A stretch of 50,434 nucleotides of DNA from an uncultured Candidatus Saccharibacteria bacterium (GCA_964572275.1 CAZNED010000003.1:1-50434), one strand, 5' to 3'; positions 3,313 to 38,479 are shown, counted from the first letter of the stretch. Notes: generated from the sequence alone by a model not told the origin. Numbers and translations are program-made.

Positions 3313-4947
3313 CTAATTAAATGGACTTTCTTCTAACATTTCGCTGACCTCTCTAACCTCCAGACTTTCGAAAGAGATCACCTGTTCGGTCCAAACATCC
3401 CGACCCTGAACTTCGGCAGAATTAATGAAAGGATTATCTAGAGCTTGAACAGTTCGCGGATTTACTGCCAATTGAAAAGCCAATACCGCTTTCTGCCCAG
3501 GCTCTAATTGTCCGACATTCCAGACCAAACGATTGGTATCGGATTGAAAACCGAGTTTTCCTTTTTCTTCATCTGGAAAGATTTCATCGGCAAACATAAC
3601 TCCATCCGGTAATATAACCGCGGCCCAAATATCATCAACCGTATTATAATAATTAGTTAATTCCCAGAATACGGTATAGCGAGTGGTTTCACCGAGTATG
3701 AAAGGAATCGGCCCCATATCTTCGAAGAATTCATTATCAGCATAAACCTTTTGGACTAATTCCAGGCGAGAATTTATTTTTGCAGTGAAAACTTGGCGAA
3801 TTGAGCCAATCTCTACTTCAAGATCAATTTGAGGACTGAGGCTACGAACTGGCCAATCATCTTTGAGATTGACCCAAAAATCAATCACTCCTTCTTCATC
3901 ACGATCCAAGAACCTCAATTCTGGAATCACGCGCCAATCCCAAAGGATGACATTATGTCCGGGCTGGTAAGTACCACGAGTAGCCCTTAAAGTATCAAGA
4001 TCAAAATAATCACCTTTCAAGGAAACTGTTAAAAATTGACTTTCAATCGGTTTTTCTGTGATGTTTCTAAAATAAATTTGATAGTGGAGCGAATCCCCAG
4101 GACTAGCGACATAATCAAAAGAGTTATTTATCTGCAAAGATAAAAGTATCGGAGCATCGGCAATTTCAACCTTGCGATTGATTTTTTTTAATGGAGCAAA
4201 TCCCTGATCCGTCCAAACACCTAATTGAGCTGTTAAAACTATTTCCGGAATACTTTCATCGACGCGGCCTGTCAAACGGATGCGCCCGCCATCTTGTGAA
4301 ACCAAAAACGGTATCTGCCACTCTCCCGGATCATTCGTTGCCGGCGTGCTGTCTATCAATTCAAATCCCCGCGTTGCCGTTAATTTAATTCCCATGTTAT
4401 CTAAAGTCTCATCCAGCGCCGAAAAATAATTCAATGAAAATTGAAATTCTTCATTCGGAGCCACTGCCTGAGGTAAGCTTAATTCCAAAGTCAATGGTAC
4501 CGAAGAGATAACCGTGGTTGCCGATGTTTCAGCCGTGTAATAGACTTTCAATCCTGGTACCTGATAATCAATCTTGGCATTTGCCGTTAAAATTTCTTCA
4601 GCTTGTCCAAAAACCCTGGCTTGAAAAACAAATTGTTGTTCTTGTCCTGGATAAATATCATCTTCCAGCTTCTGCCTCACGATATTATCTGTTGAATTTA
4701 TAGGTCGAGCGTAACGTGGGAATTCAAACAACAATTCCGCGTTAGATAATGTAAATTTTCCCTGATTTTTGACTAATAAAGTATATTCGATCGGCTTCCC
4801 CACTATAATGCTTTCCGGGGCAATCAACTCTAAGAACAAGTCGCCACGCGAAGCGACATTACGCTGACCAAACCACCAAATAGCTATTAATAAAATTATT
4901 AAAACAACAAGGAGAGAAATCAAAATGATTTTCTTAAACTTTGACAT
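3313..4947 (-). CDS. membrane-anchored surface protein with repeated DUF11/CARDB-like beta-sandwich modules
   Basis: 544 aa. One N-terminal TM (IILISLLVVLIILLIAIWWF). Repeated segments of the type 'GxxxxYxhxhxNxG' occur, e.g. VGKPIEYTLLVKNQGK and PGDSLHYQIYFRNITEK. Confidence 0.5.
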   Translation of the reverse strand: MSKFKKIILISLLVVLIILLIAIWWFGQRNVASRGDLFLELIAPESIIVGKPIEYTLLVKNQGKFTLSNAELLFEFPRYARPINSTDNIVRQKLEDDIYPGQEQQFVFQARVFGQAEEILTANAKIDYQVPGLKVYYTAETSATTVISSVPLTLELSLPQAVAPNEEFQFSLNYFSALDETLDNMGIKLTATRGFELIDSTPATNDPGEWQIPFLVSQDGGRIRLTGRVDESIPEIVLTAQLGVWTDQGFAPLKKINRKVEIADAPILLSLQINNSFDYVASPGDSLHYQIYFRNITEKPIESQFLTVSLKGDYFDLDTLRATRGTYQPGHNVILWDWRVIPELRFLDRDEEGVIDFWVNLKDDWPVRSLSPQIDLEVEIGSIRQVFTAKINSRLELVQKVYADNEFFEDMGPIPFILGETTRYTVFWELTNYYNTVDDIWAAVILPDGVMFADEIFPDEEKGKLGFQSDTNRLVWNVGQLEPGQKAVLAFQLAVNPRTVQALDNPFINSAEVQGRDVWTEQVISFESLEVREVSEMLEESPFN

Positions 4948-4972: not shown

Positions 4973-5002
4973 ATTATAGCTTAAAAAGAAGATATTGCCT
5001 AA
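4973..5002 (-). promoter_or_regulatory. candidate sigma70-type promoter for the 3313-4947 gene
   Basis: On the minus strand there is TTAGGC (5002-4997), an 18 nt spacer, then a perfect TATAAT (4978-4973), about 25 nt upstream of the ATG at 4947. Confidence 0.35.
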
Positions 5003-5031
5003 TAAGCATTGATATAAACATTCTCTGATCT

Positions 5032-5760
5032 TTAGAGAATAATTTTCTCCGGAGATTGTTTTCGTTTCACTGATTCCAAGAAAAAGTTTGTTATTTTTCC
5101 GAGATTATCCTGGTCATTTTCATTGGTTTTGATTCGACCCAATAAATATTTATTTTTTTGGGCAATCAAGCGTAAAATTTTTATAGTATTCAAAGAAATT
5201 TCTTCTTGATGATCTTCTTGGCATCCACATTTGGCACAAATGATACCATCTGGAGCAATTAAACAATTACCTGCTAATTTTTTACGACATCGGGCGCAAC
5301 AATTCAGATCAATTTGATAACCGAGCGAAGAAAGAAGTGTCCATAAAAAATAGTAATACAATCTCTGATAATGGCGATTCATCTGATTAAGAGCATGCAA
5401 GGCTCCCAACGATAACAACCAAACATTTTCATCGGGCATCTGCCAGGGCATTAAAGAGTCAATCTCCTTCATCATTTTTTGAGCCACTGAAAACTTTTTC
5501 CAGTCCTGTCCAATGTTAATAAAAGGGGATTGTATCTTCGCGGATGTTATTATCGGATAACCACGCCCCGAGATTAATTCTATCTCACTCCAATTAAAAA
5601 GATTCAACCCGGCCCTCAATTTTGAGAGGAGTTTCCTCTCTCCTCGAGCCGTGGCCTTAATTTTGCCGAAACGATCGGTTAACAAAGTTAACAAACGATC
5701 CGATTCTCCATGGTCCTCGCGAACAAGAATCAAAGCATCTGTTTTCTCTTTGAGAAACAT
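5032..5760 (-). CDS. recO: DNA repair protein RecO
   Basis: 242 aa. It has a RecO-like N-terminal OB segment (ALILVREDHGESDRLLTLLTDRFGKIKATARG) and a CxxC...CxxC zinc finger (CARCRKK...CAKCGC). Confidence 0.8.
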   Translation of the reverse strand: MFLKEKTDALILVREDHGESDRLLTLLTDRFGKIKATARGERKLLSKLRAGLNLFNWSEIELISGRGYPIITSAKIQSPFINIGQDWKKFSVAQKMMKEIDSLMPWQMPDENVWLLSLGALHALNQMNRHYQRLYYYFLWTLLSSLGYQIDLNCCARCRKKLAGNCLIAPDGIICAKCGCQEDHQEEISLNTIKILRLIAQKNKYLLGRIKTNENDQDNLGKITNFFLESVKRKQSPEKIIL

Positions 5761-5761
5761 T

Positions 5762-8700
5762 TCAAGATTCTATCGATAAATATAATTCTCTCTCGCCTAA
5801 AATAATTTTTTTAAATTCAGACAGATCGTCATTGGTCAGGCGCTGAATTTTTTGAGCTCTGTTTTCTTTTTCAATCGAACCTCTATTCTCTTCAATCAAT
5901 TTGGCTAATTCATCTGATCCCTGATAGTAAACACTGATCTGATCTTGCGGAGTCAACCCAGATTCTTTACGCATGGATTGAATGGCACGGATTATTTCCC
6001 TTATTGATCCCTCTGCTTCCAACTCTGGCGTTAATTGGATAGATAGGGCGACTGATAAGTCATTTTCTTCAATCGTAATCCAATCTTCTGATTCTGGTAA
6101 AGAATCAACAAATTGCACTTTCTTAACATTAACCTCATCTATGACTAACTCTTCTAATTGCTGATTATCGAACGGCTTTCCTTTAATTTGTAATTCCGAC
6201 AATGGTTGACGAACCTTATAACCGGCTTTGGCGCGTGCTTGTAGAACCAAACGAACTATCTCTCGAATTCGCGCCATTTCTTTTTCTAATGGTTCATTGA
6301 TTAAATCTTCTTTAACTTCGAAATAATCAATTAAATGAATTGATTCCGGTTGGTCTTTATGACGTAATGATTGATATGATTTTTCGGCGATAAAGGGAGT
6401 AAAAGGTGCAATTAGTCGGCTGGTTTCAAGTAAAACCATTCTTAATACAGCGGCGGCTTTATCTGTTTCCGGACCATAATTCTGTAATCTGGGACGAGAT
6501 CGGCGAACATACCAGTTTGAGAGATCGTCTATCAAATCTAAAAACAATCGAGCCGCTTTATCAACATGATATTTATCCATTTCATTAATAACTGCCTGGC
6601 CTACCTTATGAATGCGAGAAATTATCCATTGATCTAATAAATTATCGCTCCCAATTTCCTGAACCGGAGATTCTTCTTTTGGAGCATAAGTTAAATAAAA
6701 CTGAACGCAATTATCTAAAGTGCTGATAACCTTTTGAGCCACCTCTCTGATCTTTATCTCATCGATAACATAATTTCCACCTAGAGAAGATCTACTTAAG
6801 AAATAAAATCTCAAAGCATCCGCCCCATGTTTATCAAGAATTTCTGTCGGTGGAGTATAATTAGCCAAATGCTTGGATAATTTTTCACCTGTTTCCGTTA
6901 AGATCAATCCATGAGCCACAGCATTTTTAAAAGCCGGCTTATTCTTTCCCAGTCCAATATCTTCTAGCGTTAAAGCTGTCGCTAGAACATGTAGTGTATA
7001 AAACCAACCTCTCGTTTGCTCTAGTGCCTCAGTAATAAAATCAGCTGGAAAAGATGCCTTAGTTTCTTCTCGATTCTCGAAAGGAAAATGATTCTGCGCA
7101 TAAGGCATGGCTCCCGATTCATACCAGCAATCAAAGACCTCTTCTATGCGTTTCATCTTTTTACCGTCTTCTGAATAAAAAACCACCTCATCGATATAGG
7201 GGCGATGGAAATCAATCCTGCCTTCATTGTTTATGGGCATGGGAATGAATTTCATTTCTCTGATTTCACTCAAGTTCAACCCTAATTCTTGCCGACGCAC
7301 CGCATGTTCTTTATCAGTCAAGCCAAGGCAAGCAGACTGAAGAGCCCGTAAAACTCCTCGATGGCTAATAATTAAAATATTTTTATTTTGACATTGCCCA
7401 TCTTGCTTCTTAATAAAATCATAAATTCTTTTCTTAAGTTCCAAGCCGGTCTCTCCGCCTTCTGGGGAATGTGTTAAATAATCTTCAGGAGAATTGAATG
7501 CCTTTCGATACACTTCTTCTTTTTGTTCATTGGCTACTCCGAACTTCCTTTCACCCAGCTCTTTAAAAAATTCAGGTTTAATGTTTAGCGCCTCGCCCGC
7601 GATCTCAGCTGTTTCTTTTGTGCGCAAAGTGGGGGAAGCCCAAATGGCATCAATCTTTAAATCTTTCAATTTTGAAATTGATTCTTCCACCTGCTTGCGG
7701 CCCGTTTCAGTTAGCGGATAACCTGTCTCGCTATCAACCAGTAATTTTTTGACATTGTTTTCAGCTTCACCATGGCGCATCAGCCAATAATGATTGTCGC
7801 TAAACTTCTGGTTCATTAAATCCTCTCTTGAACCGATAACTTTTATATCTCCGGATTCCGATACCCAGACTGGCAGGGGTGCTCCCCAATAACGATTACG
7901 CGAAACAGCCCAATCCCGAGCTCCTTCCAGCCATTTCCCGAAACGTCCCTTTTTCAAATGCCCCGGAACCCAATTAATCTGTTCATTATTAGCGACCAGT
8001 TGATCCCTGAATTTTTCAACCGCGATATACCAGCTTGTAATCGGATAATAAATTAAACGCTCATCGCAACGCCAACAGAAAGGATAACTATGCTTGATTT
8101 TCATCTTCTGATAGAGTAATCCTTTCTTCTCCAAATCAATTAAAACATCACCATCTGCCTCCCAGACTAATTTTCCTTGGCCCGGCAGATTATGGCCTGT
8201 TAATACCCGACCTTCTAAATCAACAGTTATCTTTAAAGGTAAATCTTTTTCTTTTGCCACTTCCATATCTTCCAAGCCAAAAGCGGCTAGATGTACCAAG
8301 CCGGTTCCTTCTTCCATGGAAACAAAATCAGCTGAAACAATTTGATAATCACGACCATTGCTCGGTTCCATAGGATAGATCGCCTCGTATTTCTGTCCTA
8401 GTAAAGTTTCGCCTTTGAATCTTTCTATTTCCTCGTATTCTCCACTCAAAACAGATAATCTTTCTGCGGCTAAAATCAGGAATTGCTTGCCTTGCTTAAC
8501 TTTAACGTATTCGGCATCTATATTAATAGCCAAGGCAAAATTAGCCGGCAAGGTCCAAGGCGTTGTTGTCCAAACTAATAAAAAGGTATCTTCGTCTAAA
8601 GGAAATTTAACAAAAATTGATGTATCTTCGATGTCGCGATAAGCCCCGGGCTGATTTAACTCAAAATTAGATAATGGTGTCCCACAGCGAGGACAATAAG

Positions 8701-9238
8701 GACTGGTGCGATATGCCTGATAGATTAATTCTTTGTCATACAAATATTTAAAAATCCACCAAATGCTTTCGGTATAAAGGGGGTCAATTGTTGCATAATA
8801 ATTTTCATAATCGGCCCAGCGGCCCATTCTCTTAAGAATTCTTTCGAATTCCGGAAGGCAGCGGAAAACCAAACTACTGCAAGTTTCATTGAATTTATCG
8901 ATCCCGAGTTTTTCAATATCCGCTTTATTTTTTTGTTTTAATTCTTTTTCTGCCAGATTCTCCAATGGTAAACCATGGCAATCCCAACCAACACGACGAG
9001 GAACGTAGTTTCCCCTCATAGTCCGATAACGCAAAACAACATCTTTAATAGTTGAAGGAAGCAAATTACCATAATGGGGTTGGCCCGTAGCAAAGGGAGG
9101 CCCATCGTAAAAAGAAAAGAAGGGGGATCCCTCTCTTTGGATTAAGCTCTTTTGGAAAATATTCTCCGATTCCCAGAATTTCAAAATCTCTTTTTCAGAA
9201 CGAACTGTTGAGTTTTCTTCGTTTGGTTGATTCATCAC
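5762..9238 (-). CDS. ileS: isoleucine--tRNA ligase (type 2) with an inserted histidine-phosphatase domain
   Basis: 1158 aa. IleRS segments seen: PPFATGQPHYGN (HIGH-type motif), GWDCHGLP, TTTPWTLPAN, DWAVSRNRYWGAPLPVW, FHRPYIDE, CWYESGAMPYAQ and a KMSKS-type KLSKH. Residues ~482-672 are an extra RHG...SH histidine-phosphatase module (see findings). Confidence 0.9.
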   Translation of the reverse strand: MMNQPNEENSTVRSEKEILKFWESENIFQKSLIQREGSPFFSFYDGPPFATGQPHYGNLLPSTIKDVVLRYRTMRGNYVPRRVGWDCHGLPLENLAEKELKQKNKADIEKLGIDKFNETCSSLVFRCLPEFERILKRMGRWADYENYYATIDPLYTESIWWIFKYLYDKELIYQAYRTSPYCPRCGTPLSNFELNQPGAYRDIEDTSIFVKFPLDEDTFLLVWTTTPWTLPANFALAINIDAEYVKVKQGKQFLILAAERLSVLSGEYEEIERFKGETLLGQKYEAIYPMEPSNGRDYQIVSADFVSMEEGTGLVHLAAFGLEDMEVAKEKDLPLKITVDLEGRVLTGHNLPGQGKLVWEADGDVLIDLEKKGLLYQKMKIKHSYPFCWRCDERLIYYPITSWYIAVEKFRDQLVANNEQINWVPGHLKKGRFGKWLEGARDWAVSRNRYWGAPLPVWVSESGDIKVIGSREDLMNQKFSDNHYWLMRHGEAENNVKKLLVDSETGYPLTETGRKQVEESISKLKDLKIDAIWASPTLRTKETAEIAGEALNIKPEFFKELGERKFGVANEQKEEVYRKAFNSPEDYLTHSPEGGETGLELKKRIYDFIKKQDGQCQNKNILIISHRGVLRALQSACLGLTDKEHAVRRQELGLNLSEIREMKFIPMPINNEGRIDFHRPYIDEVVFYSEDGKKMKRIEEVFDCWYESGAMPYAQNHFPFENREETKASFPADFITEALEQTRGWFYTLHVLATALTLEDIGLGKNKPAFKNAVAHGLILTETGEKLSKHLANYTPPTEILDKHGADALRFYFLSRSSLGGNYVIDEIKIREVAQKVISTLDNCVQFYLTYAPKEESPVQEIGSDNLLDQWIISRIHKVGQAVINEMDKYHVDKAARLFLDLIDDLSNWYVRRSRPRLQNYGPETDKAAAVLRMVLLETSRLIAPFTPFIAEKSYQSLRHKDQPESIHLIDYFEVKEDLINEPLEKEMARIREIVRLVLQARAKAGYKVRQPLSELQIKGKPFDNQQLEELVIDEVNVKKVQFVDSLPESEDWITIEENDLSVALSIQLTPELEAEGSIREIIRAIQSMRKESGLTPQDQISVYYQGSDELAKLIEENRGSIEKENRAQKIQRLTNDDLSEFKKIILGERELYLSIES

Positions 9239-10821
9239 ATTTTATCAGGAGCACTGATGCCCATGAGCGACAATGCTTCCTTCAATATTTTTTTAACTGT
9301 TTTTAATAATACTAAACGGGCTCGCTGCTCTTCCCCTTTAGATCCAATTACCGGACAATCTCTGTAAAATTGATGCAATGCCGATGCTAAACGATAAATA
9401 TATTGAGGCAATTGATGAACTTCATAATTTTCAGCAATTATTGAAATCACTTCAGGATAATTAAGCATGCTTGCGATCAAATTCAATTCGCTTGGATGAT
9501 TGAAGATAAAATCGGTTTGTTGGTCTATTTTGTCTTCATTTATATTCAGTTTGGTTAAAATACTTTGGATTCTGGCATGCGCATATTGAATGTAATAAAC
9601 CGGATTATCAGCTGATTTTTTAACAGCCAGATCAAAGTCAAAATTCAAATGAGAATTAAGACTTCTTTCTAAGAAGAAATAGCGAACGGCATCTAGCCCA
9701 ACTTCATCAACTAATTCAGCAATAGTAATATATTCTCCTCGACGCTTAGAGATCGTCACTTCTTGCCCATCTCTTATTACTTTGACCCACTGAGCGATCA
9801 ATATTTTTAATTTCTTCGATTCATGCCCCAAAGCATTCAATCCCTGGATCAGTGGTTGAATATGGCCCTGATGATCGGCCCCCCAAATATCTATCATTAG
9901 ATCAAACCCTCTCTCGAATTTATTGCGATGATAAGCAAGATCTGTCATTAAATAAGTCATCTCGCCCGTAGCTTTAACAAGCACCCTGTTTTTATCATCG
10001 CCAAATTCAGTCGTTTTTAACCAAAGCGCCCCCTCCTTTTCTTCAGTCAGTTTCTTGTTTTTTAATTCCACTAATACTTTTTCAACTAACTTGTCTCGAT
10101 AAAGCGTTCTTTCTGAAAACCAAACATCAAATTTTAATCCTATTTTTTCAACATCCGGTCTGATCATTGTCTCTAAGATATGATCAGCTGCTTTTTGTCC
10201 GGCTTCAATCGGATTATCGGCTTTTATTAATTGGCGCAATTCTTCAATATAATCACCCTGATAAGAGGCTTCCGGGTAATTTAATACTGATTCTCCTAGG
10301 CGCTGAACCTGATAACCAGCATCATTAATATAATATTCTTTCACGATCGTATGCCCTACCCTTTTCATAATATTCCCTAAAACATCTCCCAGGAAACCGC
10401 CTCTTCCATTGCCTAAAGTCAATGGACCGGTAGGGTTAGCTGAAACAAATTCTATTTGAATCTTTTGCGGATTCGGAGATTCTATCTGTTTATTCAATTC
10501 TCTAACCATATTCTGCCATTCTCGGCAAAGCAGTTCTGGGTCTAGATAAAAATTAACGAATCCCGGAGCAACAGCTTTAACTTCAAAATCATTGCTTAAG
10601 ATTTTACACAAACCCTGAGCTGTTTCCATTGGATCTTTGCCTATTTTTTTAGCTAAAACCATAGCCACATTCGTAGCATAATGACCATATTCCTGTTTTT
10701 CAGAAGCATAAACCTGCCAATTAACATCTTCAGGCCAATTCAGGGTATTTATTGCCTTCTCTATTTTTTCGACTATTTTCCCGATAGTTGTTTTCTTCAT
10801 AACAATGCCATATTTTAGCAT
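9235..10821 (-). CDS. argS: arginine--tRNA ligase
   Basis: 528 aa. Seen: SANPTGPLTLGNGRGG, YYINDAGYQV, DIWGADHQGH, and a C-terminal DALR-type anticodon-binding region (YIQYAHARI). The start could instead be the ATG at 10800 (MKKTTIG). Confidence 0.9.
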   Translation of the reverse strand: MLKYGIVMKKTTIGKIVEKIEKAINTLNWPEDVNWQVYASEKQEYGHYATNVAMVLAKKIGKDPMETAQGLCKILSNDFEVKAVAPGFVNFYLDPELLCREWQNMVRELNKQIESPNPQKIQIEFVSANPTGPLTLGNGRGGFLGDVLGNIMKRVGHTIVKEYYINDAGYQVQRLGESVLNYPEASYQGDYIEELRQLIKADNPIEAGQKAADHILETMIRPDVEKIGLKFDVWFSERTLYRDKLVEKVLVELKNKKLTEEKEGALWLKTTEFGDDKNRVLVKATGEMTYLMTDLAYHRNKFERGFDLMIDIWGADHQGHIQPLIQGLNALGHESKKLKILIAQWVKVIRDGQEVTISKRRGEYITIAELVDEVGLDAVRYFFLERSLNSHLNFDFDLAVKKSADNPVYYIQYAHARIQSILTKLNINEDKIDQQTDFIFNHPSELNLIASMLNYPEVISIIAENYEVHQLPQYIYRLASALHQFYRDCPVIGSKGEEQRARLVLLKTVKKILKEALSLMGISAPDKM

Positions 10822-12234: not shown

Positions 12235-12681
12235 ATGCAAATAGCAAAGAATAAAAAGGCATTTTTTGATTACGAAATCCTAGAAACTCTAGAAACTGGG
12301 ATAGTTTTAAGTGGAGCCGAAACTAAATCCTCAAAAATGGGACAAGTTAGCTTGAGAGGAGCTTACGTCATTAATATAAACAATCTTCTTTATTTAACCG
12401 GAGCCCATATTTCTCCGTACCAACCGGCTAATCAGCCAGTTGATTATAATCCGACTCGACCGCGCTCTCTTTTACTCAAGAAAAAAGAATTAAAATACTT
12501 TCTCGGGAAATTGAAAGAAAAGGGCTTGACGCTTATCCCTCTAAGAATGTATACTAAGCAGAACTTAGTTAAACTAGAAATTGGTTTAGCTAAGGGAAAA
12601 AAGAAATACGACAAACGCGAGCAGATTAAAAAACGCGAAGATAATCGTCGCATAGGTAGATCTTTAAAAGGTGATGAATAA
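12235..12681 (+). CDS. smpB: SsrA-binding protein SmpB
   Basis: 148 aa. KNKKAFFDYEILETLETGIVLSGAETKS and a basic C-terminal tail. It lies immediately upstream of the tmRNA. Confidence 0.9.
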   Translation: MQIAKNKKAFFDYEILETLETGIVLSGAETKSSKMGQVSLRGAYVININNLLYLTGAHISPYQPANQPVDYNPTRPRSLLLKKKELKYFLGKLKEKGLTLIPLRMYTKQNLVKLEIGLAKGKKKYDKREQIKKREDNRRIGRSLKGDE

Positions 12682-12687: not shown

Positions 12688-12977
12688 GGGGACGCATGGC
12701 TTCGATAGAAGCTTGAATCAAGTGGTGCAGATTAAGGTGTCGAGTCCTTATTAAACTTTCGACAAAGTACAAGTGTCAACACACTTCGGGGTTTAACCCC
12801 CGCTTACGCTTACGCCTGATATTCTCAGAGTAAGCTTTCATAGTTTTTTGCCCCCATTCGTGGGGGAATCGTTTCAGAGGAACAACTGTTCCTTTTAGAC
12901 TCTTGCAAAAGGGCTAAGTCTGTAGAAGCTACTTGTATTCGTCCTTCTAGACGTGGGTTCGATTCCCACCGTCTCCA
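12688..12977 (+). ncRNA. ssrA: tmRNA (ssrA)
   Basis: The 5' end GGGGACGCATGGCTTCGA pairs with the 3' acceptor CGTCTCC followed by discriminator A. A canonical T-arm GTGGGTTCGATTCCCAC is present. An internal tag frame ends ...TPAYAYA-TGA (stop at 12817-12819). CCA is not encoded. Confidence 0.8.
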
Positions 12978-13030
12978 CTCTAATTAAAATTAACTTTCAC
13001 ATAATCGAACAATATTTTATCAACAATACT

Positions 13031-13537
13031 ATCGAGAAAGGCTTGAGGTGGGCTCAAAAATCAACCGATCAAATAAGAGTGATCGGTCAAGATGGCCAGC
13101 AATTAGGTGTTTATAGCCTTGATCAAGCATTGAGTATGGCGCGAGAGCAAAATCTTGATTTAGTTCTCATAACTGCCAAGTCTGACATGCCCATCTGTCG
13201 CATTACAGAAGCCGGAAAGTTTCTCTATCAGAAAAAGAAAGAGAGAAAGAAAAGTGATTCTATCGAATCAAAGAAGCTCAAAATCAGATTCAACACTTCG
13301 TTGCATGACATGGAGACTCGAGCTCATCAAGCTAAGAAATTTCTCGAGAAAGGCGATCGGATTCAAATATTGATGCAATTGCGAGGACGAGAGAATGCCC
13401 TTCGCGCGCAAGCTGAGGAAAAGATGAATCAATTTTTGAAGATGATTGAATCTATCTATCCGATTAAGATAGAAAATCAGACATCTCAGAAATCCAAAAT
13501 CCTACAATACGAAATTATTCCCAATCCTTCAAAATGA
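13031..13537 (+). CDS. infC: translation initiation factor IF-3, non-AUG start, exact start uncertain
   Basis: DQIRVIGQDGQQLGVYSLDQALSMAREQNLDLVLI and a C-terminal domain (KLKIRFNTSLHDMETRAHQAKKFLEKGDRIQI) are typical of IF-3. No in-frame ATG lies upstream of the conserved N-terminus. Candidate starts are ATC 13019, ATC 13031 and TTG 13043. The track start at 12953 lies inside the tmRNA. Confidence 0.8.
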   Translation: MEKGLRWAQKSTDQIRVIGQDGQQLGVYSLDQALSMAREQNLDLVLITAKSDMPICRITEAGKFLYQKKKERKKSDSIESKKLKIRFNTSLHDMETRAHQAKKFLEKGDRIQILMQLRGRENALRAQAEEKMNQFLKMIESIYPIKIENQTSQKSKILQYEIIPNPSK

Positions 13538-20509: not shown

Positions 20510-21342
20510 TTTTGACAATAAGGACAATAATAAGTCGAGCGATTACCTATAATTTCTCTTTTCAAAGATTGATGACATCGAGGACACTTGCCGTTCTTCC
20601 GATAAATCTTCAGATAAGAAGAATATTTTCCTTCTTGATCATTTACATTTCTAAATTCGGCAATACTCGTACCACCCTCTATTATGGCCTGTTTTAATAT
20701 TTTTTTAATACCAGAAAATATCTTTTTGCGCTCAGATAAAGACAGAGACTTGGCCTGACGATAAGGATTTATCTTTGTGGCCCAAAGAATCTCATTGGCA
20801 TAAATATTGCCTATGCCAACGATATGTTTTTGATCCATCAACCAACTCTTGATACGTGCTGAATTTTGGTCAATTAATTCATTAAATCTTTCAAAGGTGA
20901 AATCTGCAACAAGAGGTTCATCTCCCAAATTAGCTAACCATTTGATATCTTCTATCGTTTCAGTCGGCCAATATTCAATTCTAGAAAATTTACGTTGGTC
21001 CGACCAGGCCAAATATTGATTATTATTTAATTCAAAAAAAGCATGAATCGATTTATCCTCTATGTATTCTTTTTGATATGTTTTCGGACTAAGAATTAGA
21101 AAATGGCCTGTCATCTTGGGATGAAATAATAAGAATCCTTGCGGTTTTAAGTGAAAAACTATTATTTTTCCTCTTCTCCTTACATCCATGATTGAAGAAT
21201 CTTTTATTTTTTTCTTTAAAACCGAAAAAGACGGATGATAAAATAATTTACGTTCATCCGTCCAGACATCAATTATTCTCTTGTTCTTTATCCGAGAGCG
21301 GAGGCCTCTGACCATCGTCTCTACCTCCGGCAATTCAGGCAT
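20506..21342 (-). CDS. mutM: formamidopyrimidine-DNA glycosylase (Fpg/MutM)
   Basis: MPELPEVETMVRGL N-terminus, an H2TH segment, and a C-terminal CxxC...CxxC zinc finger (CPRCHQ...YYCPYCQ). Confidence 0.9.
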   Translation of the reverse strand: MPELPEVETMVRGLRSRIKNKRIIDVWTDERKLFYHPSFSVLKKKIKDSSIMDVRRRGKIIVFHLKPQGFLLFHPKMTGHFLILSPKTYQKEYIEDKSIHAFFELNNNQYLAWSDQRKFSRIEYWPTETIEDIKWLANLGDEPLVADFTFERFNELIDQNSARIKSWLMDQKHIVGIGNIYANEILWATKINPYRQAKSLSLSERKKIFSGIKKILKQAIIEGGTSIAEFRNVNDQEGKYSSYLKIYRKNGKCPRCHQSLKREIIGNRSTYYCPYCQK

Positions 21343-21727
21343 TAACCGGTTTTCGGAAAGGGGCTCTTACTCTTTCTACTATCTCGTCAGGCGTAAAATG
21401 GGCCTTGATTAAATAATCATCTGCCCCTAAATCAAATCCTCTCTCAATGTCTTCTCTTTGACCCAGATTCGAAAGAATGATTACCGGAATTTGGCCTATC
21501 TCCGGATCATCTTTAATTTTCTCCAGAATTTCAAAACCGTCAACGCCAGGTAAAATCAAATCAAGTAAAATCAAATCTGGTTTTTCTTGCCGAGTCAATT
21601 CTAACCCCTCTTCGCCATTAGCCGCTTTCACAACATCAAATCCTTCTTCTATCAATTTCTTGGCCATCAGTTCATTCAAGAAAACATCGTCTTCTATAAT
21701 CAATATTTTTTTAGGGAGATTTGACAT
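21335..21727 (-). CDS. stand-alone response-regulator receiver (CheY-like)
   Basis: 130 aa. ILIIEDD...DLILLDLILPGVDGFE...PVIILSN...KAHF. No output domain. Confidence 0.85.
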   Translation of the reverse strand: MSNLPKKILIIEDDVFLNELMAKKLIEEGFDVVKAANGEEGLELTRQEKPDLILLDLILPGVDGFEILEKIKDDPEIGQIPVIILSNLGQREDIERGFDLGADDYLIKAHFTPDEIVERVRAPFRKPVNA

Positions 21728-21741
21728 TTTTTTAAAAATAA

Positions 21742-22116
21742 TTAGCTTGACTCTTGGATAACTTTATTTATTTTTTCCATTGTTTCTTGCAAGCTAAACT
21801 TAGTTTTGATAATCCAGTCGCAAGCCCCCAGATGACGAGCTTGGCTGATCTCTGACGCAGCCCCGGAATTAGATATAATAATCACAGGAATATCTTTTGT
21901 CTCTGGTGCGGCCTGTTTCCTTTTTAAAAGTTCTATACCGTCAATATTAGGAAGAGTAATATCCAAAAGGATCAAATCAAGATTTTCTTCTCTTAACAAT
22001 TTCAATCCTTCTTCGCCATCATGAGCAGTCAAGACTTCATAGCCAGCATCACTAATTTTCCGCGACAATAGTCCTAATATTTCTTGATCATCTTCAATGA
22101 TTAACACTCTGCTCAT
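21742..22116 (-). CDS. stand-alone response-regulator receiver (CheY-like)
   Basis: 124 aa. VLIIEDD...DLILLDITLPNIDGIE...PVIIISN...KTKF. No output domain. Confidence 0.85.
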   Translation of the reverse strand: MSRVLIIEDDQEILGLLSRKISDAGYEVLTAHDGEEGLKLLREENLDLILLDITLPNIDGIELLKRKQAAPETKDIPVIIISNSGAASEISQARHLGACDWIIKTKFSLQETMEKINKVIQESS

Positions 22117-22165
22117 ATAAACAATCTGTGGATATTATAACAAGGGCTGAATCTCTTTGCAAACG

Positions 22166-24130
22166 TCAATAGGGGATGCTGAAAAAGAAAGTTGTTCCTT
22201 TGCCTTCTTGTGATTCGAACCAGATCCTGCCCTTATGAGCCTCAATAATATTGCGGGAAATGAATAATCCTAAACCAGTGCCTTCTGTTTCTTGAGTAAC
22301 AGCATTCCCGGCTCTGAAGAATCTTTGGAAAACTCTAGCTTGCTGGGCACGAGGGATGCCGATACCTTGATCTTTGACCGATGCCAGCAGAAAGCCATCA
22401 TCTTCTTCCAAAGAAACAAATACTTTGCTATTTCTGGGCGAATATTTAATCGCATTTTCAATAATATTCTGAATTGCTAAAGTCATCTTTTCTTGGTCGG
22501 CTCTGATCAGTGGAAAAGTTTTTTCTCCCCCTTGGAAGGATATTATTATCTCTTTCTGCCGGGCCGATTCTTCGACAGAATTGATAACATTCTGAATGAT
22601 CTCTTTAAGATCGGTTTCCTTCGGCTCATAAAGAAAGCGTCCTTCTTCGATTCGCGAAACATTAAGCAGATCATTAACCAAATTAATCATTCGTTGATTA
22701 CTGATATAGGTTTTCTCCATTAAATCTTTTTGCCCCCGGCTCAGCTCTCCCTCGTCTCCGTCAAGCATCATCCTTAAACTCCATTTGATAGCCGATAATG
22801 GTGTTCTTAATTGATGAGCCGCGATTGAGACAAATTCTGTCTTCATCCTTTGGACTAATTTTTCTCGAGAAACATCGTGAAAAACTATTAGATATCCGGC
22901 GGATTCATTTTGAGCTAATGGTACTGTTGATACCTCAAAATAAATGCCTTCTTTGGCTTCAAATCCCTCTCTTTTAATAATTTTTATCTTCTGTCCATCT
23001 AAAATATGTTGCAAGGCGGGTTTCAATTTAGGATTACTGTTTAATTCTATCAGTGGTTTCCCTTCTATTTTAGAATCAAGACCGAAAGTTTCCTGAGCAT
23101 GTGTATTAATCATCTGGATTAACCCCTGCTCGTCAACTACCAGCAAGGCATCCACGAAATTATTAATCACCGTCAATGTCTTCTCCCTTTCTTCTTCTGC
23201 TTTTTGGCGAGCTTCCTCTGTATCTTCTAAAATATTCAGCAAAGCTTCCGTCGTCTGCTTCATCTGAGAAACTTCTTGTCTCTTCTTGACATCACTGTCG
23301 TTCTCCAGGCTATCTTTCATTTTCTCAGTTAATTCTCTGATCTGATTATCTTTTTCTCTCATGCGCTGAGCTGATCGAACTCGAAAAGCAACTTGCTCTT
23401 GTCTTGCTTTAATGGCTTGATATCCTTCCTCTTTTAATTTCGATTGAAGAGTATTGTTGATATCTTGCAATCTTCTCGTTGCCCAACTCATTTGATCGTG
23501 AAAATGATTGATAATAAATTGAGCCATAAAAATGGCTATTCCACTGATAATCAACAAAAATCCCTCCATCATTGGTTGAGCTTCGCAACTATTAGGAGGA
23601 CCGTAATCAAACAAGAATTGGCAATTATTACTCAAGAAAACTAATAAGGCTAATGCAATCCAGATTAAAGCACAGAAAAATGTTTGGTAGAGATTGTTAT
23701 CTCTAAAGAATGGAGCGACTAGGGCAATATAGCAAATATAGAATATGATAGCTAAGTATGGAATAGATATGCCATGCACCATGGCTACCGGAGCAAAGAG
23801 ATAGAAAGTTAGCCAAATCGTTAAGACTTCTAGAGTAAAAATACTTGATAAGATCTGCTGGGATTGCTCCAGTGTCAAATTACTTGTGCGACGAATGAAT
23901 AAAGCTCCGAAGAAGAATAAAAGAGAGGAAATTCCAATGAACCCAGCCCCTAAAGCAATTGACAAAAGAGATCCTGTCTCTCTTCCTAAAACAAATAGAA
24001 TAATCAGCAAGACAAAGACACCGGGCAAGAGAAGTTGTCTCAATTTAATCTGCTTCTCCATCGCCCTTAATAATATTTCTTTATTGGCTTTGGAAGATAA
24101 TTCTTTATCCTTCATGAAAAGATTTGTCAT
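22166..24130 (-). CDS. membrane sensor histidine kinase (multi-TM, coiled coil, PAS, HisKA, HATPase_c)
   Basis: 654 aa. H-box SIAAHQLRTPLSAI, N-box NIIENAIKYSP, G-boxes DQGIGIP and GTGLGLFISRNI. About 6 N-terminal TM helices. Confidence 0.85.
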   Translation of the reverse strand: MTNLFMKDKELSSKANKEILLRAMEKQIKLRQLLLPGVFVLLIILFVLGRETGSLLSIALGAGFIGISSLLFFFGALFIRRTSNLTLEQSQQILSSIFTLEVLTIWLTFYLFAPVAMVHGISIPYLAIIFYICYIALVAPFFRDNNLYQTFFCALIWIALALLVFLSNNCQFLFDYGPPNSCEAQPMMEGFLLIISGIAIFMAQFIINHFHDQMSWATRRLQDINNTLQSKLKEEGYQAIKARQEQVAFRVRSAQRMREKDNQIRELTEKMKDSLENDSDVKKRQEVSQMKQTTEALLNILEDTEEARQKAEEEREKTLTVINNFVDALLVVDEQGLIQMINTHAQETFGLDSKIEGKPLIELNSNPKLKPALQHILDGQKIKIIKREGFEAKEGIYFEVSTVPLAQNESAGYLIVFHDVSREKLVQRMKTEFVSIAAHQLRTPLSAIKWSLRMMLDGDEGELSRGQKDLMEKTYISNQRMINLVNDLLNVSRIEEGRFLYEPKETDLKEIIQNVINSVEESARQKEIIISFQGGEKTFPLIRADQEKMTLAIQNIIENAIKYSPRNSKVFVSLEEDDGFLLASVKDQGIGIPRAQQARVFQRFFRAGNAVTQETEGTGLGLFISRNIIEAHKGRIWFESQEGKGTTFFFSIPY

Positions 24131-30689: not shown

Positions 30690-32573
30690 ATGATTTCTCG
30701 AAAGAATTTTAAAATATTCTTAATCAGTTTTTTTGAAACCCTGTTTATTATCATATTAATAGGCGTTATTTTAATATTGGCGCTTTTTCTCTATTACACT
30801 CATGATTTTCCTCGCCCTGATAAGTTCACGAATGATACTGCGGCTCAACCAACAAGAATTTACGATCGGCACGGGGAGATACTTCTTTATAATATTTTTG
30901 GGGAAGAAAATCGTTTAATCGTTCCTCTCAGTAAAATATCTTCTTATTTACAATATGCTGTCATTGCCTTGGAAGATGCCAAGTTCTATCAACACCACGG
31001 AGTAGATATCCAAGGAATTGTGCGCTCTATTCTAACCGATTTGAAGCTAGGTCGTCCTGCCGCTGGCGCTTCGACTATCTCCCAACAGTTAATCCGCTCT
31101 CACTTTTTAAGTACTCAAAAAACAGCTGAGAGAAAAATTAGAGAAATTCTTTTAACTCTTGAGTTAGAAAGACAATATTCCAAGGACGAGATATTAGAGT
31201 GGTATTTAAACCAAGTTCCATTTGGATCAAATTTTTACGGAGCAGAATCGGCCAGCCAAGGATTTTTTAATAAAACGGCTGAGCAGTTATCAATTGGAGA
31301 AGCCGCCACCCTAGCTGCACTTATCCAATCTCCCAGCGGCTTTTCTCCATATGGAGGTGATCAGGAAGCTCTTGTTGCTAGACAACAATACGCTTTACAA
31401 CGTATGTATCAATTGGATTTCATAAACAAAGAATCTCTTGATAACGCGTTAGTGGAAGACATCAATTTTGCCGAAATAATACACTCTCTTAAAGCCCCTC
31501 ATTTTACTCTCAAAGTGCTGGAAGAATTAGAAAGCGTGTATGGACGCTCAAGATTAGAGCGTGACGGATTGAAGATTTATACAACGCTTGATTGGCAGAT
31601 GCAACAGAGAGCCGAAGAAATAATTCAAGAAAAAGTAGAAGAATTTGAGATTTTTAGAGTTTATAATGGTTCTTTAGTAGCAATTGATCCTAATAATGGA
31701 GCTATTTTGGCCATGGTCGGATCCAAGGATTATTTTGGGACATCTTATCCTGAAGGATGTGAACAAGGATGTCTTTTCCAGCCTCAATTCAATGTTGCCA
31801 CCTCTGGAGAAAGACATCCCGGATCCGCTTTAAAACCATTTATCTACGCCGTTGCCTTTCAGAAAGGAGCCACCCCAGAAGATATTATTGAAGATGAGCC
31901 AACTAATTTTGGTTTATGGGGGGATTCTTATTACATTCCTCGTAATTACGATGGATTATTCCGCGGATCTGTTACTTTGCGTAGTGCCTTAGCTCAATCT
32001 TTAAATATTCCGGCCGTTAAAGTATTCATGTATTTGGCTGGGATAGAAGATAGTATTAAATTACTGAAGGAGGCTGGGGTTAGCAGTTCTCTCCCAGCCG
32101 TTCCTTCCTTAGTATTAGGCGGTGGCGGTGTCAAATTGTTAGAGTTAACTGCTGCTTACGGAATATTCGCCACAGAGGGTCTTAAGATCACTCCCTATAT
32201 GATCAGTCGAGTTGAAGATTCTCAAGGACGAGTTATTTTTGAAAATAAAAACTCTGTCGGTCTAAGGGTAATTGATCGCTCTGTAGCGCAAGATATCAAT
32301 AGTATTCTTTCAGATAATGAAGCACGTTCTCCGATGTTCGGATTAAACTCAAACCTTTACATCTCAAAATATCCTGATGTTGCCGCTAAAACAGGAACTA
32401 ATCAAGATTACAAAGATTTCTGGGCTATTGGTTATAACCGAGATCTTATTGTCGGAGTTTGGTTAGGGAACAATAATCAAGAGGGAATGATTCAGCGCCC
32501 TTCAGTCAGTACGGCAGGTGTAATTTGGAAGACATTTATGACCGAAGCGCTTGATCAGATTTATGGACTTTAA
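30690..32573 (+). CDS. class A penicillin-binding protein (GT51 transglycosylase + transpeptidase)
   Basis: 627 aa with an N-terminal TM. GT51 motifs ALEDAKFYQHHGVD, GASTISQQL, RKIRE. Transpeptidase motifs SALKPF (SxxK) and KTGT. Confidence 0.9.
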   Translation: MISRKNFKIFLISFFETLFIIILIGVILILALFLYYTHDFPRPDKFTNDTAAQPTRIYDRHGEILLYNIFGEENRLIVPLSKISSYLQYAVIALEDAKFYQHHGVDIQGIVRSILTDLKLGRPAAGASTISQQLIRSHFLSTQKTAERKIREILLTLELERQYSKDEILEWYLNQVPFGSNFYGAESASQGFFNKTAEQLSIGEAATLAALIQSPSGFSPYGGDQEALVARQQYALQRMYQLDFINKESLDNALVEDINFAEIIHSLKAPHFTLKVLEELESVYGRSRLERDGLKIYTTLDWQMQQRAEEIIQEKVEEFEIFRVYNGSLVAIDPNNGAILAMVGSKDYFGTSYPEGCEQGCLFQPQFNVATSGERHPGSALKPFIYAVAFQKGATPEDIIEDEPTNFGLWGDSYYIPRNYDGLFRGSVTLRSALAQSLNIPAVKVFMYLAGIEDSIKLLKEAGVSSSLPAVPSLVLGGGGVKLLELTAAYGIFATEGLKITPYMISRVEDSQGRVIFENKNSVGLRVIDRSVAQDINSILSDNEARSPMFGLNSNLYISKYPDVAAKTGTNQDYKDFWAIGYNRDLIVGVWLGNNNQEGMIQRPSVSTAGVIWKTFMTEALDQIYGL

Positions 32574-33697
32574 TTAGAACGAATGGGCATTAAAACATGC
32601 AAATAATCTTCTTGCCCATCTTGCTTGATAAGTGCCGCTTTATCTGCATCGGTTAAACATAGATAAGCGCTTGCTCCATTAATGTTCGTTAAAGCATCTG
32701 ATAAGAAGCGACCATTAAAAGCTATTTCCATATCTCCACCTGTTATCTCCGCAGATATCGATGATTTGAATTCTCCTACGCGAGAACTCTGGGCTTTTAT
32801 TTTGAGATTATTCTCTTCTGAGGAAACGGTTAGTCTTACTTCATAGGTTTGGTCAGAAAGTAGACTAGCAGCTTTAATTTTACTCAAGAATTCTTGTCGA
32901 TCAATTTTGATTGTAATCGGTGATTTATCGGGAATTACTTCTTGATATTTAGGGTAAGTTCCTTCTATTAAGCGCGAAACCATTCTTATTTCCAAATTAG
33001 AAGGAGCTTCGCCAAGAACTGTTAAGAATTCTATCTGATTATCATCTCCCGTAATTTTAACTGATGAATTAGATTCTCCGAGTATTCCAATAATATTATT
33101 AACCGCTTTTGCCGGTAAAATGATCTCATAATCTTTCTTCAATTTCTGAGATAAAGAAATCGTTTTTTGAGCCAATCGATAGCTATCAGTAGCAGCTAAA
33201 ATAAGTTGATCGTCTTTAAAATGCATATAAACTCCCGATATTTCCGGGCGGGTGCGCGATGGCGCTACGCATCCTATGACTTGCCTTAATCCTTCATTTA
33301 ATGCAGAACCGCTTATCTCTACTGTTAGTGACGATTCTGGTTTAGGAATAATTGGAAAATCTTCAGATTCCATAATCTGCAAAGATGTTTCATTCTCGGC
33401 ATCCTTGACGTTTAAAGTATTTTTTATCAATTCAATATAAAGCTTTTCATCGCTCATTAACCTACCAAGTGCGGATATAATACGCCCAGGGACTACAGCT
33501 TGCCCGTCTTTTGCAACTTTAGCTAGCGCTGTGACTTCGACTCCGATTTCTAAATCTGTAGCGGAAAAATGGACCGAATTATCATCAGCCTTGATCATTA
33601 TTCCTTCCAGAATAGGCAAGTTAGGACTCTTAATGGCAACTCTACTAACTATTGAGATAGCTTGATTAAGTTTTTCACGAAGGACTTCGATTTTCAT
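32570..33697 (-). CDS. dnaN: DNA polymerase III beta sliding clamp
   Basis: 375 aa. MKIEVLREKLNQAISIVSRV...LATDSYRLA-type segment (AATDSYRLAQ). It lies directly downstream of dnaA. Confidence 0.9.
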   Translation of the reverse strand: MKIEVLREKLNQAISIVSRVAIKSPNLPILEGIMIKADDNSVHFSATDLEIGVEVTALAKVAKDGQAVVPGRIISALGRLMSDEKLYIELIKNTLNVKDAENETSLQIMESEDFPIIPKPESSLTVEISGSALNEGLRQVIGCVAPSRTRPEISGVYMHFKDDQLILAATDSYRLAQKTISLSQKLKKDYEIILPAKAVNNIIGILGESNSSVKITGDDNQIEFLTVLGEAPSNLEIRMVSRLIEGTYPKYQEVIPDKSPITIKIDRQEFLSKIKAASLLSDQTYEVRLTVSSEENNLKIKAQSSRVGEFKSSISAEITGGDMEIAFNGRFLSDALTNINGASAYLCLTDADKAALIKQDGQEDYLHVLMPIRSN

Positions 33698-33916
33698 AAC
33701 TATAATAATATATTAATTATATAAATTTGTTGTTATTAGAGATGATGATTTTGTGGAAAAGATGATGAAAGCTAGATTGGTAAATGTTTTGTAAAAATAA
33801 TAATTTGGGGATAAAAAGGAAAACTTGTGGAAAATAAAATGGAATTTTGAAATTTTTTTCTAATCTCTATAAATTCTCAACTAATTCTACCATATTTACA
33901 CACTGATTATTCAGGA
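33698..33916. other. candidate oriC / DnaA-box cluster in the dnaA-dnaN spacer
   Basis: 219-nt AT-rich non-coding spacer. TTGTGGAAAA occurs twice (33751-33760 and 33825-33834) and TTGGGGATAA once (33805-33814). Each is one mismatch from the DnaA box TGTGGATAA. Confidence 0.5.
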
Positions 33917-35257: not shown

Positions 35258-35373
35258 AATAATGACACTTTAACACAATTAGCCATGCAATAGAATGAGT
35301 CAAAATACTCTTGTATTAAGGGCTTTCTAGGCAAGGGGGATAATATGTTAATATCTTGGGTAAGAACAGTTGA

Positions 35374-35402: not shown

Positions 35403-35423
35403 TAAGCATTGTGAAATAATATA

Positions 35424-35759: not shown

Positions 35760-35761
35760 TT

Positions 35762-38465: not shown

Positions 38466-38479
38466 GATTTTTAAATAAT

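Follow-up and report, generated by a model that had tools for sequence, protein, structure and literature searches.

The stretch of DNA that we analyzed (the window; 50,434 nucleotides; GCA_964572275.1 CAZNED010000003.1:1-50434) comes from an uncultured Candidatus Saccharibacteria bacterium. It contains ileS, the gene for isoleucyl-tRNA synthetase (IleRS), and the encoded protein has a predicted histidine phosphatase domain nested within the catalytic fold of the synthetase. The gene lies in a minus-strand operon with argS and recO. The features of this locus are, in the order of transcription (aa are residues of the ileS product):

9235..10821, minus strand: argS, encoding arginyl-tRNA synthetase (ArgRS), the upstream operon partner; Pfam Arg_tRNA_synt_N, tRNA-synt_1d, and DALR_1; the argS stop overlaps the ileS start
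5762..9238, minus strand: ileS, type 2 IleRS with a nested phosphatase domain; 1158 aa, GTG start, uninterrupted open reading frame (ORF)
9065..9079, minus strand: HIGH-type signature PHYGN (aa 54-58), with Asn at the fourth position
8267..8572, minus strand: CP1 editing hallmarks WTTTPWT (aa 223-229), GTGLVH (aa 311-316), and D324, all invariant columns in an 84-sequence alignment
7811..7912, minus strand: N-terminal IleRS flank (aa 443-476), with the CxxC half of a zinc knuckle in most homologues, lost here
7220..7810, minus strand: inserted segment at site A (aa 477-673, about 197 residues), as measured against 44 insert-less orthologues
7304..7786, minus strand: His_Phos_1 domain (PF00300, aa 485-645), 118.1 bits vs. 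a gathering threshold of 21.7, E = 5e-34
7772..7777, minus strand: R488-H489, part of the RHG motif and invariant in alignment A2, with H489 as the predicted nucleophile that accepts the phosphoryl group
7622..7624, minus strand: R539, phosphate-binding arginine of the catalytic set conserved in homologues
7451..7453, minus strand: E596, predicted general acid, invariant in A2
7361..7363, minus strand: H626, second active-site histidine, invariant in A2
7103..7219, minus strand: C-terminal IleRS flank (aa 674-712; RIDFHRPYIDEVVF...CWYESGAMP), with the CxC half of the knuckle in most homologues, lost here
6869..6883, minus strand: KMSKS-type signature KLSKH (aa 786-790); K786, S788, and K789 are invariant in the alignment
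5032..5760, minus strand: recO, the downstream operon partner; Pfam RecO_N and RecO_C; conserved synteny

The ileS gene and its nested phosphatase

Judging from its sequence, the window gene is the organism's housekeeping type 2 IleRS. The whole protein passes the cutoff of the ileS equivalog model in NCBIfam (TIGR00392; 803.7 bits vs. 621.4). Its best sequence matches in the PDB are 9w01, 8c8u, and 1ile (E ~ 1e-200), as against 4e-81 for the type 1 enzyme 1ffy, and it has the DUF5915 domain; these place it in type 2. The AlphaFold2 model of the full-length protein (pLDDT 91.3, pTM 0.86, with blocks of the insert at about 89-97) has the type 2 enzyme IleRS2 of P. megaterium as its best Foldseek match (8c8v; E = 3e-89, TM-score 0.84). 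The protein is not a member of the mupirocin-exception families MupA and MupB (NF000257 and NF000258; 679.7 and 659.1 bits vs. 1900). Like the editing hallmarks, the catalytic columns of the synthetase are invariant over the 84 aligned sequences. The gene order argS-ileS-recO is found in the window, in the insert-bearing loci L001, L005, and L093, and in the insert-less loci L003 and L007, so the window gene is the orthologous ileS rather than a paralogue. argS also lies upstream of ileS in L088. L093, which is an independent assembly from the nearest relative, has the identical smpB / argS-ileS-recO arrangement. No second ileS was found among the Pfam-scanned ORFs of at least 120 aa in the window (five ORFs were left out of the scan).

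The original prediction was that a complete phosphatase domain lies inside this synthetase, and a Pfam scan confirmed this: tRNA-synt_1 matches in two stretches on either side of His_Phos_1, followed by Anticodon_1 and DUF5915. The reading frame is continuous over all 1158 aa, with no stop or frameshift, as had been claimed. The extra residues had been placed at 7223-7795, which corresponds exactly to aa 482-672; compared to insert-less orthologues, they span aa 477-673 (7220-7810). These orthologues come from a search of 5.8 billion proteins, which found 76 homologues with the same nested Pfam architecture (about 1140-1190 aa, 44-93% identity), from NCBI, JGI, ENA, and Logan assemblies of Parcubacteria-type organisms, as well as 44 close IleRS without the insert (about 946-1024 aa). 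In the databases, the insert-bearing proteins are labelled only as "isoleucine--tRNA ligase" or "class I tRNA ligase family protein." Two near-identical loci, L005 with the insert and L007 without it, differ in length by 594 nt, or 198 codons.

Alignments to other IleRS agree on the position of the insert. In HMMER alignments, residues 474 and 675 of the query adjoin residues 488 and 497 of human IleRS, and residues ~464 and ~673 adjoin residues ~463 and ~484 of P. megaterium IleRS2. The linker at this point is normally short, as had been stated: it has about 8-20 residues in solved IleRS structures. The insert interrupts the hairpin that joins the WGxPxPxW strand of IleRS to the DxWxESG helix. 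This loop belongs to the second half of the catalytic fold, which bears out the expected placement. By domain order, this hairpin would be the CP3 of published schemes for class Ia synthetases, which name CP1, CP2, and CP3 (PMC11685878; bioRxiv 10.64898/2026.02.03.703510); the residue-level match is inferred.

An assembly chimera, or a frameshift artefact that joined an IleRS gene to a phosphatase gene, has a negligible chance of being the explanation. Of 80 species genomes (the best 80 loci of the genome survey described below), 61 have these junctions in frame, and so do dozens of independent assemblies. The composition is unbroken across the insert (GC of 0.38-0.43, the same as in the flanks), and the insert and the core diverge together: across the family, the identity of the insert follows that of the core. 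The sole apparent split, in L046, is a run of Ns. (The "split IleRS" at 4585-4680 of that locus, just after the insert, has duplicated sequence on either side of the Ns, so we consider it a scaffolding artefact.) When the window gene is compared to a relative that is 93% identical, dN/dS comes to 0.049 in the insert and 0.052 in the synthetase core, so purifying selection acts on the two alike. We also looked for the signature of a mobile element and rejected the idea, as the junctions lack direct repeats and have only trivial AT-rich inverted ones, and as there is no GC anomaly.

All of the motifs that had been quoted in support of a phosphatase are present (WLMRHGEAENN, ASPTLRTKETAEI, and ILIISHRGVLRAL), as are the synthetase signatures PHYGN and KLSKH. 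The catalytic residues had been assigned correctly, and E596 can be added to them. R488-H489, R539, E596, and H626 are kept in at least 90% of the 77 insert-bearing proteins, and the complete R-H-R-E-H set is present in 165 of the 175 domain copies that we surveyed, including tandem copies and free-standing forms. Among the 10 copies without the full set, 8 lack the columns (they are truncated or partial) and 2 have a substitution. In the multi-copy proteins listed below, the pentad is intact in every complete copy except for one E→Q substitution. An AlphaFold2 model of the insert alone (pLDDT 95.3) has the alpha/beta fold of the histidine phosphatases, and its Foldseek neighbors (TM-score ~0.8) include GpgP, PspA, CobC, PhoE, TIGAR, and the histidine-family phosphatase (HFP) of the riboflavin pathway. 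None of its top 50 neighbors were protein phosphatases of the SixA, PGAM5, or Sts types. From the conserved residues and the model, we predict that the insert is a complete and apparently active branch-1 histidine phosphatase.

The best matches of the insert in NCBIfam are dPGM_arch and CobC. It scores below the cutoff of every characterized family that we tested: dPGM_arch (NF038349; 95.3 bits vs. 225), pgm_1 (TIGR01258; 17.8 vs. 81.7), CobC (TIGR03162; 84.9 vs. 162.9), PspA (NF045917; 42 vs. 350), and SixA (TIGR00249; 37.4 vs. 74.5). So we assign it only to the histidine phosphatase superfamily. A search of PADLOC-DB with the full protein, its insert, and a free-standing homologue gave no match, and we dropped the idea that the phosphatase belongs to a defense system.

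The unusual HIGH and KMSKS signatures had been presented together with the insert, but they are lineage traits that are independent of it. HYGN occurs in 11 of the 77 insert-bearing proteins and is confined to the subclade of the window; HYGH is found in 61 of the 77 and in 43 of the 44 insert-less enzymes. Similarly, KLSK[RHK] is the norm of the lineage, and KLSK[RHKS] is the usual form in Parcubacterial IleRS whether or not the insert is present. Asparagine at the fourth position of the HIGH motif is tolerated in tryptophanyl-tRNA synthetase (TrpRS), which has TIGN.

Site A is flanked in most homologues by the two halves of a four-cysteine knuckle, CxxC...CxC (50 of 77 enzymes with the insert and 33 of 44 without it). 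All four cysteines have been lost in the clade of the window (aa ~457-476 and ~680-700; 7811-7870 and 7160-7200), and this complete loss is seen only among insert-bearing proteins (21 of 77, vs. 0 of 44 insert-less enzymes). This raises the idea that the insert is a non-catalytic module: a structural brace that replaced the zinc knuckle, or a pad that binds tRNA or phosphate. As the knuckle was probably lost only once, its loss does not count as evidence that the insert compensates for it. Also, most of the insert-bearing enzymes (the same 50 of 77) retain the cysteines, and both the near-universal catalytic pentad (165 of 175 copies) and the low dN/dS of 0.049 argue against a non-catalytic role. 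We consider such a role to be very improbable.

Distribution, cassette exchange, and other insertion sites

To find more loci, we surveyed one genome per species (GTDB) using a back-translated subgroup of 7 insert sequences, and we examined the best 80 loci. A broader alignment of 26 inserts had no conserved stretch, which is why the subgroup was used, and the survey samples mainly the "VSHGDPLW" subgroup. At least 384 matching stretches were confirmed in the species-representative genomes. The 80 loci are nearly all from metagenome-assembled genomes that are labelled as Patescibacteria types, with a few other phylum labels; many of the organism labels of these genomes are generic. The named groups are Nealson-, Jorgensen-, Azam-, Nomura-, Harrison-, Wildermuth-, and Staskawiczbacteria and Paceibacter. 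Together with the 76 homologues from the protein search, these matches show that the same insert recurs in orthologues from the Candidate Phyla Radiation (CPR).

The locus exists in three states. In 61 of the 80 species genomes, the phosphatase is in frame within IleRS. In 14 of the 80, a free-standing homologue of 190-200 aa lies 3' of argS and 5' of an insert-less ileS. In 13 of these 14, it is directly upstream of ileS, often overlapping the ileS start; in L084, there is one gene in between. Three free-standing relatives that were found independently are also directly 3' of argS, with ileS next in L088 and L092 and with genes in between in L090. (In L090, a NADAR-domain gene and an AOX-like gene come after the phosphatase at 5001-6058, and ileS lies about 4 kb downstream; in some lineages, additional genes gather in the argS-ileS slot.) In the third state, represented by L003 and L007, the phosphatase is absent from the locus.

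In a neighbor-joining tree of the IleRS core, insert-less enzymes appear at several positions within insert-bearing clades. The closest comparison is between P0021, which has the insert, and P0058, P0059, and P0063, which do not: their cores are 96-97% identical. L005 and L007 are collinear and are 97.3-98.6% identical over 10.7 kb of DNA, with one differing segment of 682 vs. 88 nt. That segment extends beyond the insert into about 45 nt of the upstream flank and about 65 nt of the downstream flank, which are strongly diverged. For P0021 (with the insert) and P0059 (without), the identity is 0.98 in the core and 0.64 in the flanks; for P0024 (with) and P0077 (without), it is 0.92 in the core and 0.55 in the flanks; for P0059 and P0077, which both lack the insert, it is 0.85 in the core and 0.84 in the flanks. 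The identity of the flanks thus goes with the state of the insert and not with the relatedness of the cores, which fits the replacement of long and short alleles by recombination better than it fits clean deletion. Co-adaptation of the flanks to the insert is a less likely alternative. As near-identical strains lack the insert, IleRS works without the module, and the module is accessory. A neighbor-joining tree of the phosphatases is star-like, with an arbitrary root, and is compatible with movement from the neighboring gene into ileS or with the reverse.

We also compared a profile of the insert to 1.84 billion cluster representatives, which gave 1138 representatives at E ≤ 1e-30, and we classified the best 150. 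These include 55 free-standing proteins, 80 IleRS fusions or fragments, 2 valyl-tRNA synthetases (ValRS), and 12 proteins without similarity to IleRS or ValRS; 22 proteins have more than one copy of the phosphatase. Site A predominates among the mapped insertions (positions Q 474-477/669-676 of the query). P0213 and P0279 have an additional copy between Q852 and Q865 (site C). In P0245 and P0257, site A is empty, and there are copies at site C and between Q716-719 and Q727-731 (site B). P0211 has copies at both A and B, and in P0217, P0226, and P0247, two copies are in tandem at site A. The contig that encodes P0245 (L095 6001-10260) has 48.5% GC, and the neighboring genes are purA, a DAHP synthase, and a gene for an SLH-domain protein. 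This does not look like a gene set of the CPR, so the association of the phosphatase with IleRS may extend beyond the CPR.

Outside of IleRS, P0339 is a ValRS (848.8 bits vs. a cutoff of 704) with two phosphatase copies, and P0210 is a ValRS fragment with four. In P0339 (L094 703-5319), about 240 residues separate the two phosphatase domains; of this spacer, only the last ~47 aa (867-913) align to IleRS, unlike residues 629-866, and Pfam matches tRNA-synt_1 between the domains. A PemK toxin gene is directly upstream of this ValRS gene. In P0248, the phosphatase is at the C-terminus of ArgRS, with recO directly next and ileS outside the slot (L096 5001-7795); that is, ileS is missing from the expected order argS-(phosphatase)-ileS-recO and must lie elsewhere. 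ileS is likewise missing from the slot in L086 (1285-5291), where a free-standing phosphatase is 3' of argS and directly 5' of recO. Fusions of TsaC/Sua5 with the phosphatase form four clusters (P0253 and three others), and a tandem-double phosphatase and a fragment are directly upstream of tyrS, the gene for tyrosyl-tRNA synthetase (TyrRS). In Patescibacteria, TsaC/Sua5, a t6A enzyme, has a striking variety of fusion partners that are unrelated to one another (P0359-P0475). Very common among them is an Ogt-type DNA-binding domain (PF01035), and there are fusions to TruB, 2H/cyclic phosphodiesterase, methylpurine glycosylase, NUDIX, GNAT, and histidine phosphatase as well.

Each part of this protein is known, and nested modules are a theme of class Ia synthetases, but the combination of type 2 IleRS with a branch-1 histidine phosphatase is apparently undescribed. 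Characterized enzymes of type 2, which is the eukaryote-like and mupirocin-resistant type (P. megaterium IleRS2, 8C8U/8C8V; T. thermophilus, 1ILE; yeast and human cytosolic, 8WND and 9W01) have the same fold and are collinear with the window enzyme outside the insert, including the catalytic fold and the CP1 editing, anticodon-binding, and DUF5915 C-terminal domains. The window enzyme differs in its additional ~197 residues, in having HYGN for HYGH, and in the loss of the zinc-knuckle cysteines, and none of the characterized type 2 enzymes has a domain at site A. Conversely, CobC (6NRU, 6E4B), PhoE (1H2E), PspA (4IJ5), GpgP (Rv2419c, 4PZA), and TIGAR (3DCY) share the fold of the insert (TM-score ~0.8, 18-25% identity), its Arg-His/Arg/Glu/His set, and its size (about 190-210 aa), but the insert is embedded in another enzyme and is below every curated family cutoff. 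Full-text literature searches, whose coverage of the literature is incomplete, found no description of a phosphatase within IleRS. In a preprint on host defense in Patescibacteria, the synthetase that is mentioned is a pheS counter-selection marker, and CPR papers that we consulted for a pyrophosphatase say nothing about whether one is present. A classification of ~109,000 bacterial IleRS by domain architecture does not mention phosphatases, the CPR, or Patescibacteria (bioRxiv 10.64898/2026.02.03.703510). The original prediction that this architecture was undescribed therefore stands. The architecture is not rare, however: it is common in uncultured Parcubacteria, and none of the characterized IleRS has it.

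The nearest curated precedents are different. Among NCBI's curated models, there is one for IleRS with an extra catalytic domain (NF040702, [quoted passage not shown]), but that domain is a GNAT, and the window protein is not a member (254.7 bits vs. a cutoff of 1999); none of the models is for a phosphatase-containing IleRS. The RNase H/acid phosphatase NF005567/PRK07238, which we take to be the mycobacterial Rv2228c/RnhC type, joins a CobC-like phosphatase to a nucleic-acid enzyme (the insert scores 57.8 bits vs. a cutoff of 326), but this is an end-to-end fusion to RNase H, unlike an insert that is nested in a synthetase. CP1, CP2, CP3, the leucine-specific domain of leucyl-tRNA synthetase (LeuRS), and the INS subdomain of IleRS2 follow the same principle as the insert, in that each is a module within a loop of the catalytic or anticodon-binding body. 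Those class Ia modules, which bind tRNA or act on aminoacyl-tRNA, are found throughout their families, while the insert is a predicted phosphohydrolase that is restricted to certain lineages and is polymorphic within them.

Possible functions of the phosphatase

The window protein is most likely bifunctional. Its synthetase part retains all of the motifs for aminoacylation and for editing, and its insert is a predicted phosphohydrolase that folds and is under strong selection. We propose that the phosphatase is a dispensable accessory phosphohydrolase that is tied to adenylate-forming tRNA enzymes and that would act beside the synthetase on a small phosphorylated compound. We view this as close to an even bet. 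In the histidine phosphatase superfamily, the histidine of the RHG motif attacks a phosphoryl group that is bound by two arginines and a second histidine, a glutamate gives the leaving group a proton, and the phospho-histidine is then hydrolyzed. In the window protein, the nucleophile would be H489, the phosphoryl group would be bound by R488, R539, and H626, and the proton would come from E596. The source of the module would be the free-standing gene, which in related Parcubacteria lies between argS and ileS. Next to the synthetase, the phosphatase would clear or convert a small phosphorylated compound of adenylation or aminoacylation; pyrophosphate (PPi) or a nucleotide phosphomonoester would be our guess. 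AppA of E. coli, from branch 2 of the superfamily, is a precedent for the hydrolysis of a phosphoanhydride.

Our proposal is based on the partners and on structural neighbors that act on small molecules. IleRS, ValRS, ArgRS, TsaC, and the TyrRS that is encoded next to the phosphatase all convert ATP to an acyl-AMP and PPi in reactions related to tRNA, which suggests that the phosphatase is linked to adenylation or aminoacylation. If genes for such partners make up about 3-4% of a small genome, three or four independent hits are improbable by chance, according to a rough estimate that assumes independence. The comparative data favor some link to aminoacylation, without picking among the nucleotide by-product, the alarmone, and the tRNA 3'-phosphate that had been suggested as substrates.

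Several points weigh against our proposal. The gene order argS-phosphatase-ileS could by itself explain the unions with ArgRS and IleRS. TsaC of the CPR is also fused to Ogt, TruB, 2H phosphoesterase, NUDIX, and GNAT domains, so an end-to-end fusion to TsaC is weak evidence of coupling. The queries in our surveys were inserts from IleRS, which biases the results toward IleRS. The neighbor-joining trees carry no support values. The loss of the insert in near-identical strains means that IleRS does not need the module to function. Every aminoacyl-tRNA synthetase makes PPi, so a role as a pyrophosphatase would leave the preference for IleRS unexplained, and we know of no branch-1 histidine phosphatase that is an established pyrophosphatase. 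And our assignment of substrates is a guess.

We also considered electrostatic docking, and set it aside. Of the free-standing forms that are adjacent to ileS, 13 of 14 are basic (pI 9.5-10.4), as compared to near-neutral inserts, but a control undercut this contrast: IleRS and ArgRS from the same genomes are likewise basic (pI ~9-9.6). In comparable genomes, embedded copies have +7.1 charges per 100 aa and free forms have +10.5 (p = 0.012), which is only weak evidence.

The most serious rival is that the domain is an unrelated housekeeping enzyme (similar to phosphoglycerate mutase, or acting on phosphoserine or a sugar phosphate) that came to be in synthetases through operon adjacency, genome compaction, and drift, without any mechanistic link to aminoacylation. 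We consider this unlikely, with an appreciable chance of being correct. It would account for the free-standing gene within a conserved housekeeping cluster, for the labels of its relatives in the source databases ("probable phosphoglycerate mutase" or "PhoE"), for the best NCBIfam matches (dPGM_arch and CobC), and for structural neighbors that are metabolic phosphatases. It also fits with the promiscuity of fusions in the CPR, as for TsaC, and with an insert that is dispensable for IleRS. But the partners other than IleRS are all adenylate-forming tRNA enzymes (ValRS, ArgRS, TsaC, and the neighbor tyrS), and there was no unrelated partner among the fused representatives. Entry in frame into three or four internal loops and tandem amplification are hard to explain by the loss of stop codons, and the domain misses the cutoffs for the characterized families (dPGM_arch, pgm_1, CobC, and PspA).

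Two other rivals involve substrates that are macromolecules. That the embedded phosphatase works in cis, either healing a phosphorylated 3' end of tRNA-Ile or stripping a toxin kinase's phosphate from the KLSK loop, strikes us as quite unlikely. End-healing in general would be the removal of a 2'- or 3'-phosphate (or an opened cyclic phosphate), or of another terminal phosphate of RNA, so that damaged tRNA could then be aminoacylated by the same enzyme. Every partner handles tRNA or intermediates of tRNA modification, the domain carries more positive charge than does the synthetase core of the same genomes (+7 to +10 vs. +3 to +4 charges per 100 aa), and a fusion of a histidine phosphatase with a nucleic-acid enzyme, PRK07238, is among the matches. 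On the other hand, the nearest folds are phosphatases of small molecules, the difference in charge is modest in proteomes that are basic overall, and to our knowledge, TsaC does not bind tRNA and no histidine phosphatase is an RNA 3'-phosphatase. Overall, we doubt that end-healing is correct. As for a built-in protein phosphatase, it would reverse an inhibitory phosphorylation, such as that of the serine of the KLSK loop by Hip-type toxin kinases, and would be an immunity module in cis. The serine of the KLSKR loop is phosphorylated by HipA in GltX, as is that of the KMSKS loop by HipT in TrpS. In IleRS, the serine of KLSK is invariant, and the partners are mostly class I synthetases with KMSKS-type loops; sites A, B, and C are all within the half of the catalytic fold that bears this loop. 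The polymorphism of the insert, shuffled by recombination between near-identical strains, and its tandem amplification would also be consistent with immunity. However, TsaC lacks a KMSKS loop, the fold search found no neighbors of the SixA, PGAM5, or Sts-like types, PADLOC gave no match, and no kinase-toxin family was found among the Pfam-scanned ORFs of the window or the called genes of the loci that we examined. As the idea is purely by analogy, we consider it improbable.

The rest of the window, and implications

The other features that we annotated in the window are:

12235-12681, plus strand: smpB
12688-12980, plus strand: tmRNA gene, directly 3' of smpB (Rfam, 93 bits)
32570-33697, minus strand: dnaN
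33917-35257, minus strand: dnaA

An ORF for IF3 (12953-13537, GTG start) overlaps the 3' end of the tmRNA gene, so the true start of IF3 is probably further downstream. About 500 nt without genes separate dnaA from yidC (at 35762), which is followed by a jag-like R3H gene, and the stretch from dnaN up to yidC (32570-35761) is probably the chromosomal origin region. A minus-strand cluster at 36894-46837 encodes two large proteins, of 523 and 822 aa, whose N-termini weakly match pilins of type IV secretion systems, as well as a TraG/VirB4-like P-loop ATPase (41431-43248); three other ORFs in the cluster (40920-41456, 43241-43894, and 44768-46837) had no match in Pfam. The cluster looks like a type IV secretion or pilus-like apparatus. 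At 21335-24130, two single-domain response regulators (130 and 124 aa) adjoin a PAS-containing histidine kinase (654 aa), which is a sizeable signaling module for a small genome.

Returning to the nested phosphatase, the locus offers natural controls: the phosphatase may be inserted, neighboring, or absent, and the cassette is the only difference between near-identical strains. The labels of its free-standing relatives, as PhoE or phosphoglycerate mutase, may mislead metabolic reconstructions of the CPR/Patescibacteria. If repair or immunity in cis were true, then this would be a new kind of module built into an aminoacyl-tRNA synthetase, and the polymorphism of the cassette, its tandem copies, and its repeated insertion into IleRS and ValRS would then be traces of a conflict that is still under way. 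More broadly, aminoacyl-tRNA synthetases rank with the most thoroughly studied enzymes; their known nested modules edit or bind tRNA, and an active nested phosphohydrolase would add a new chemistry to them.

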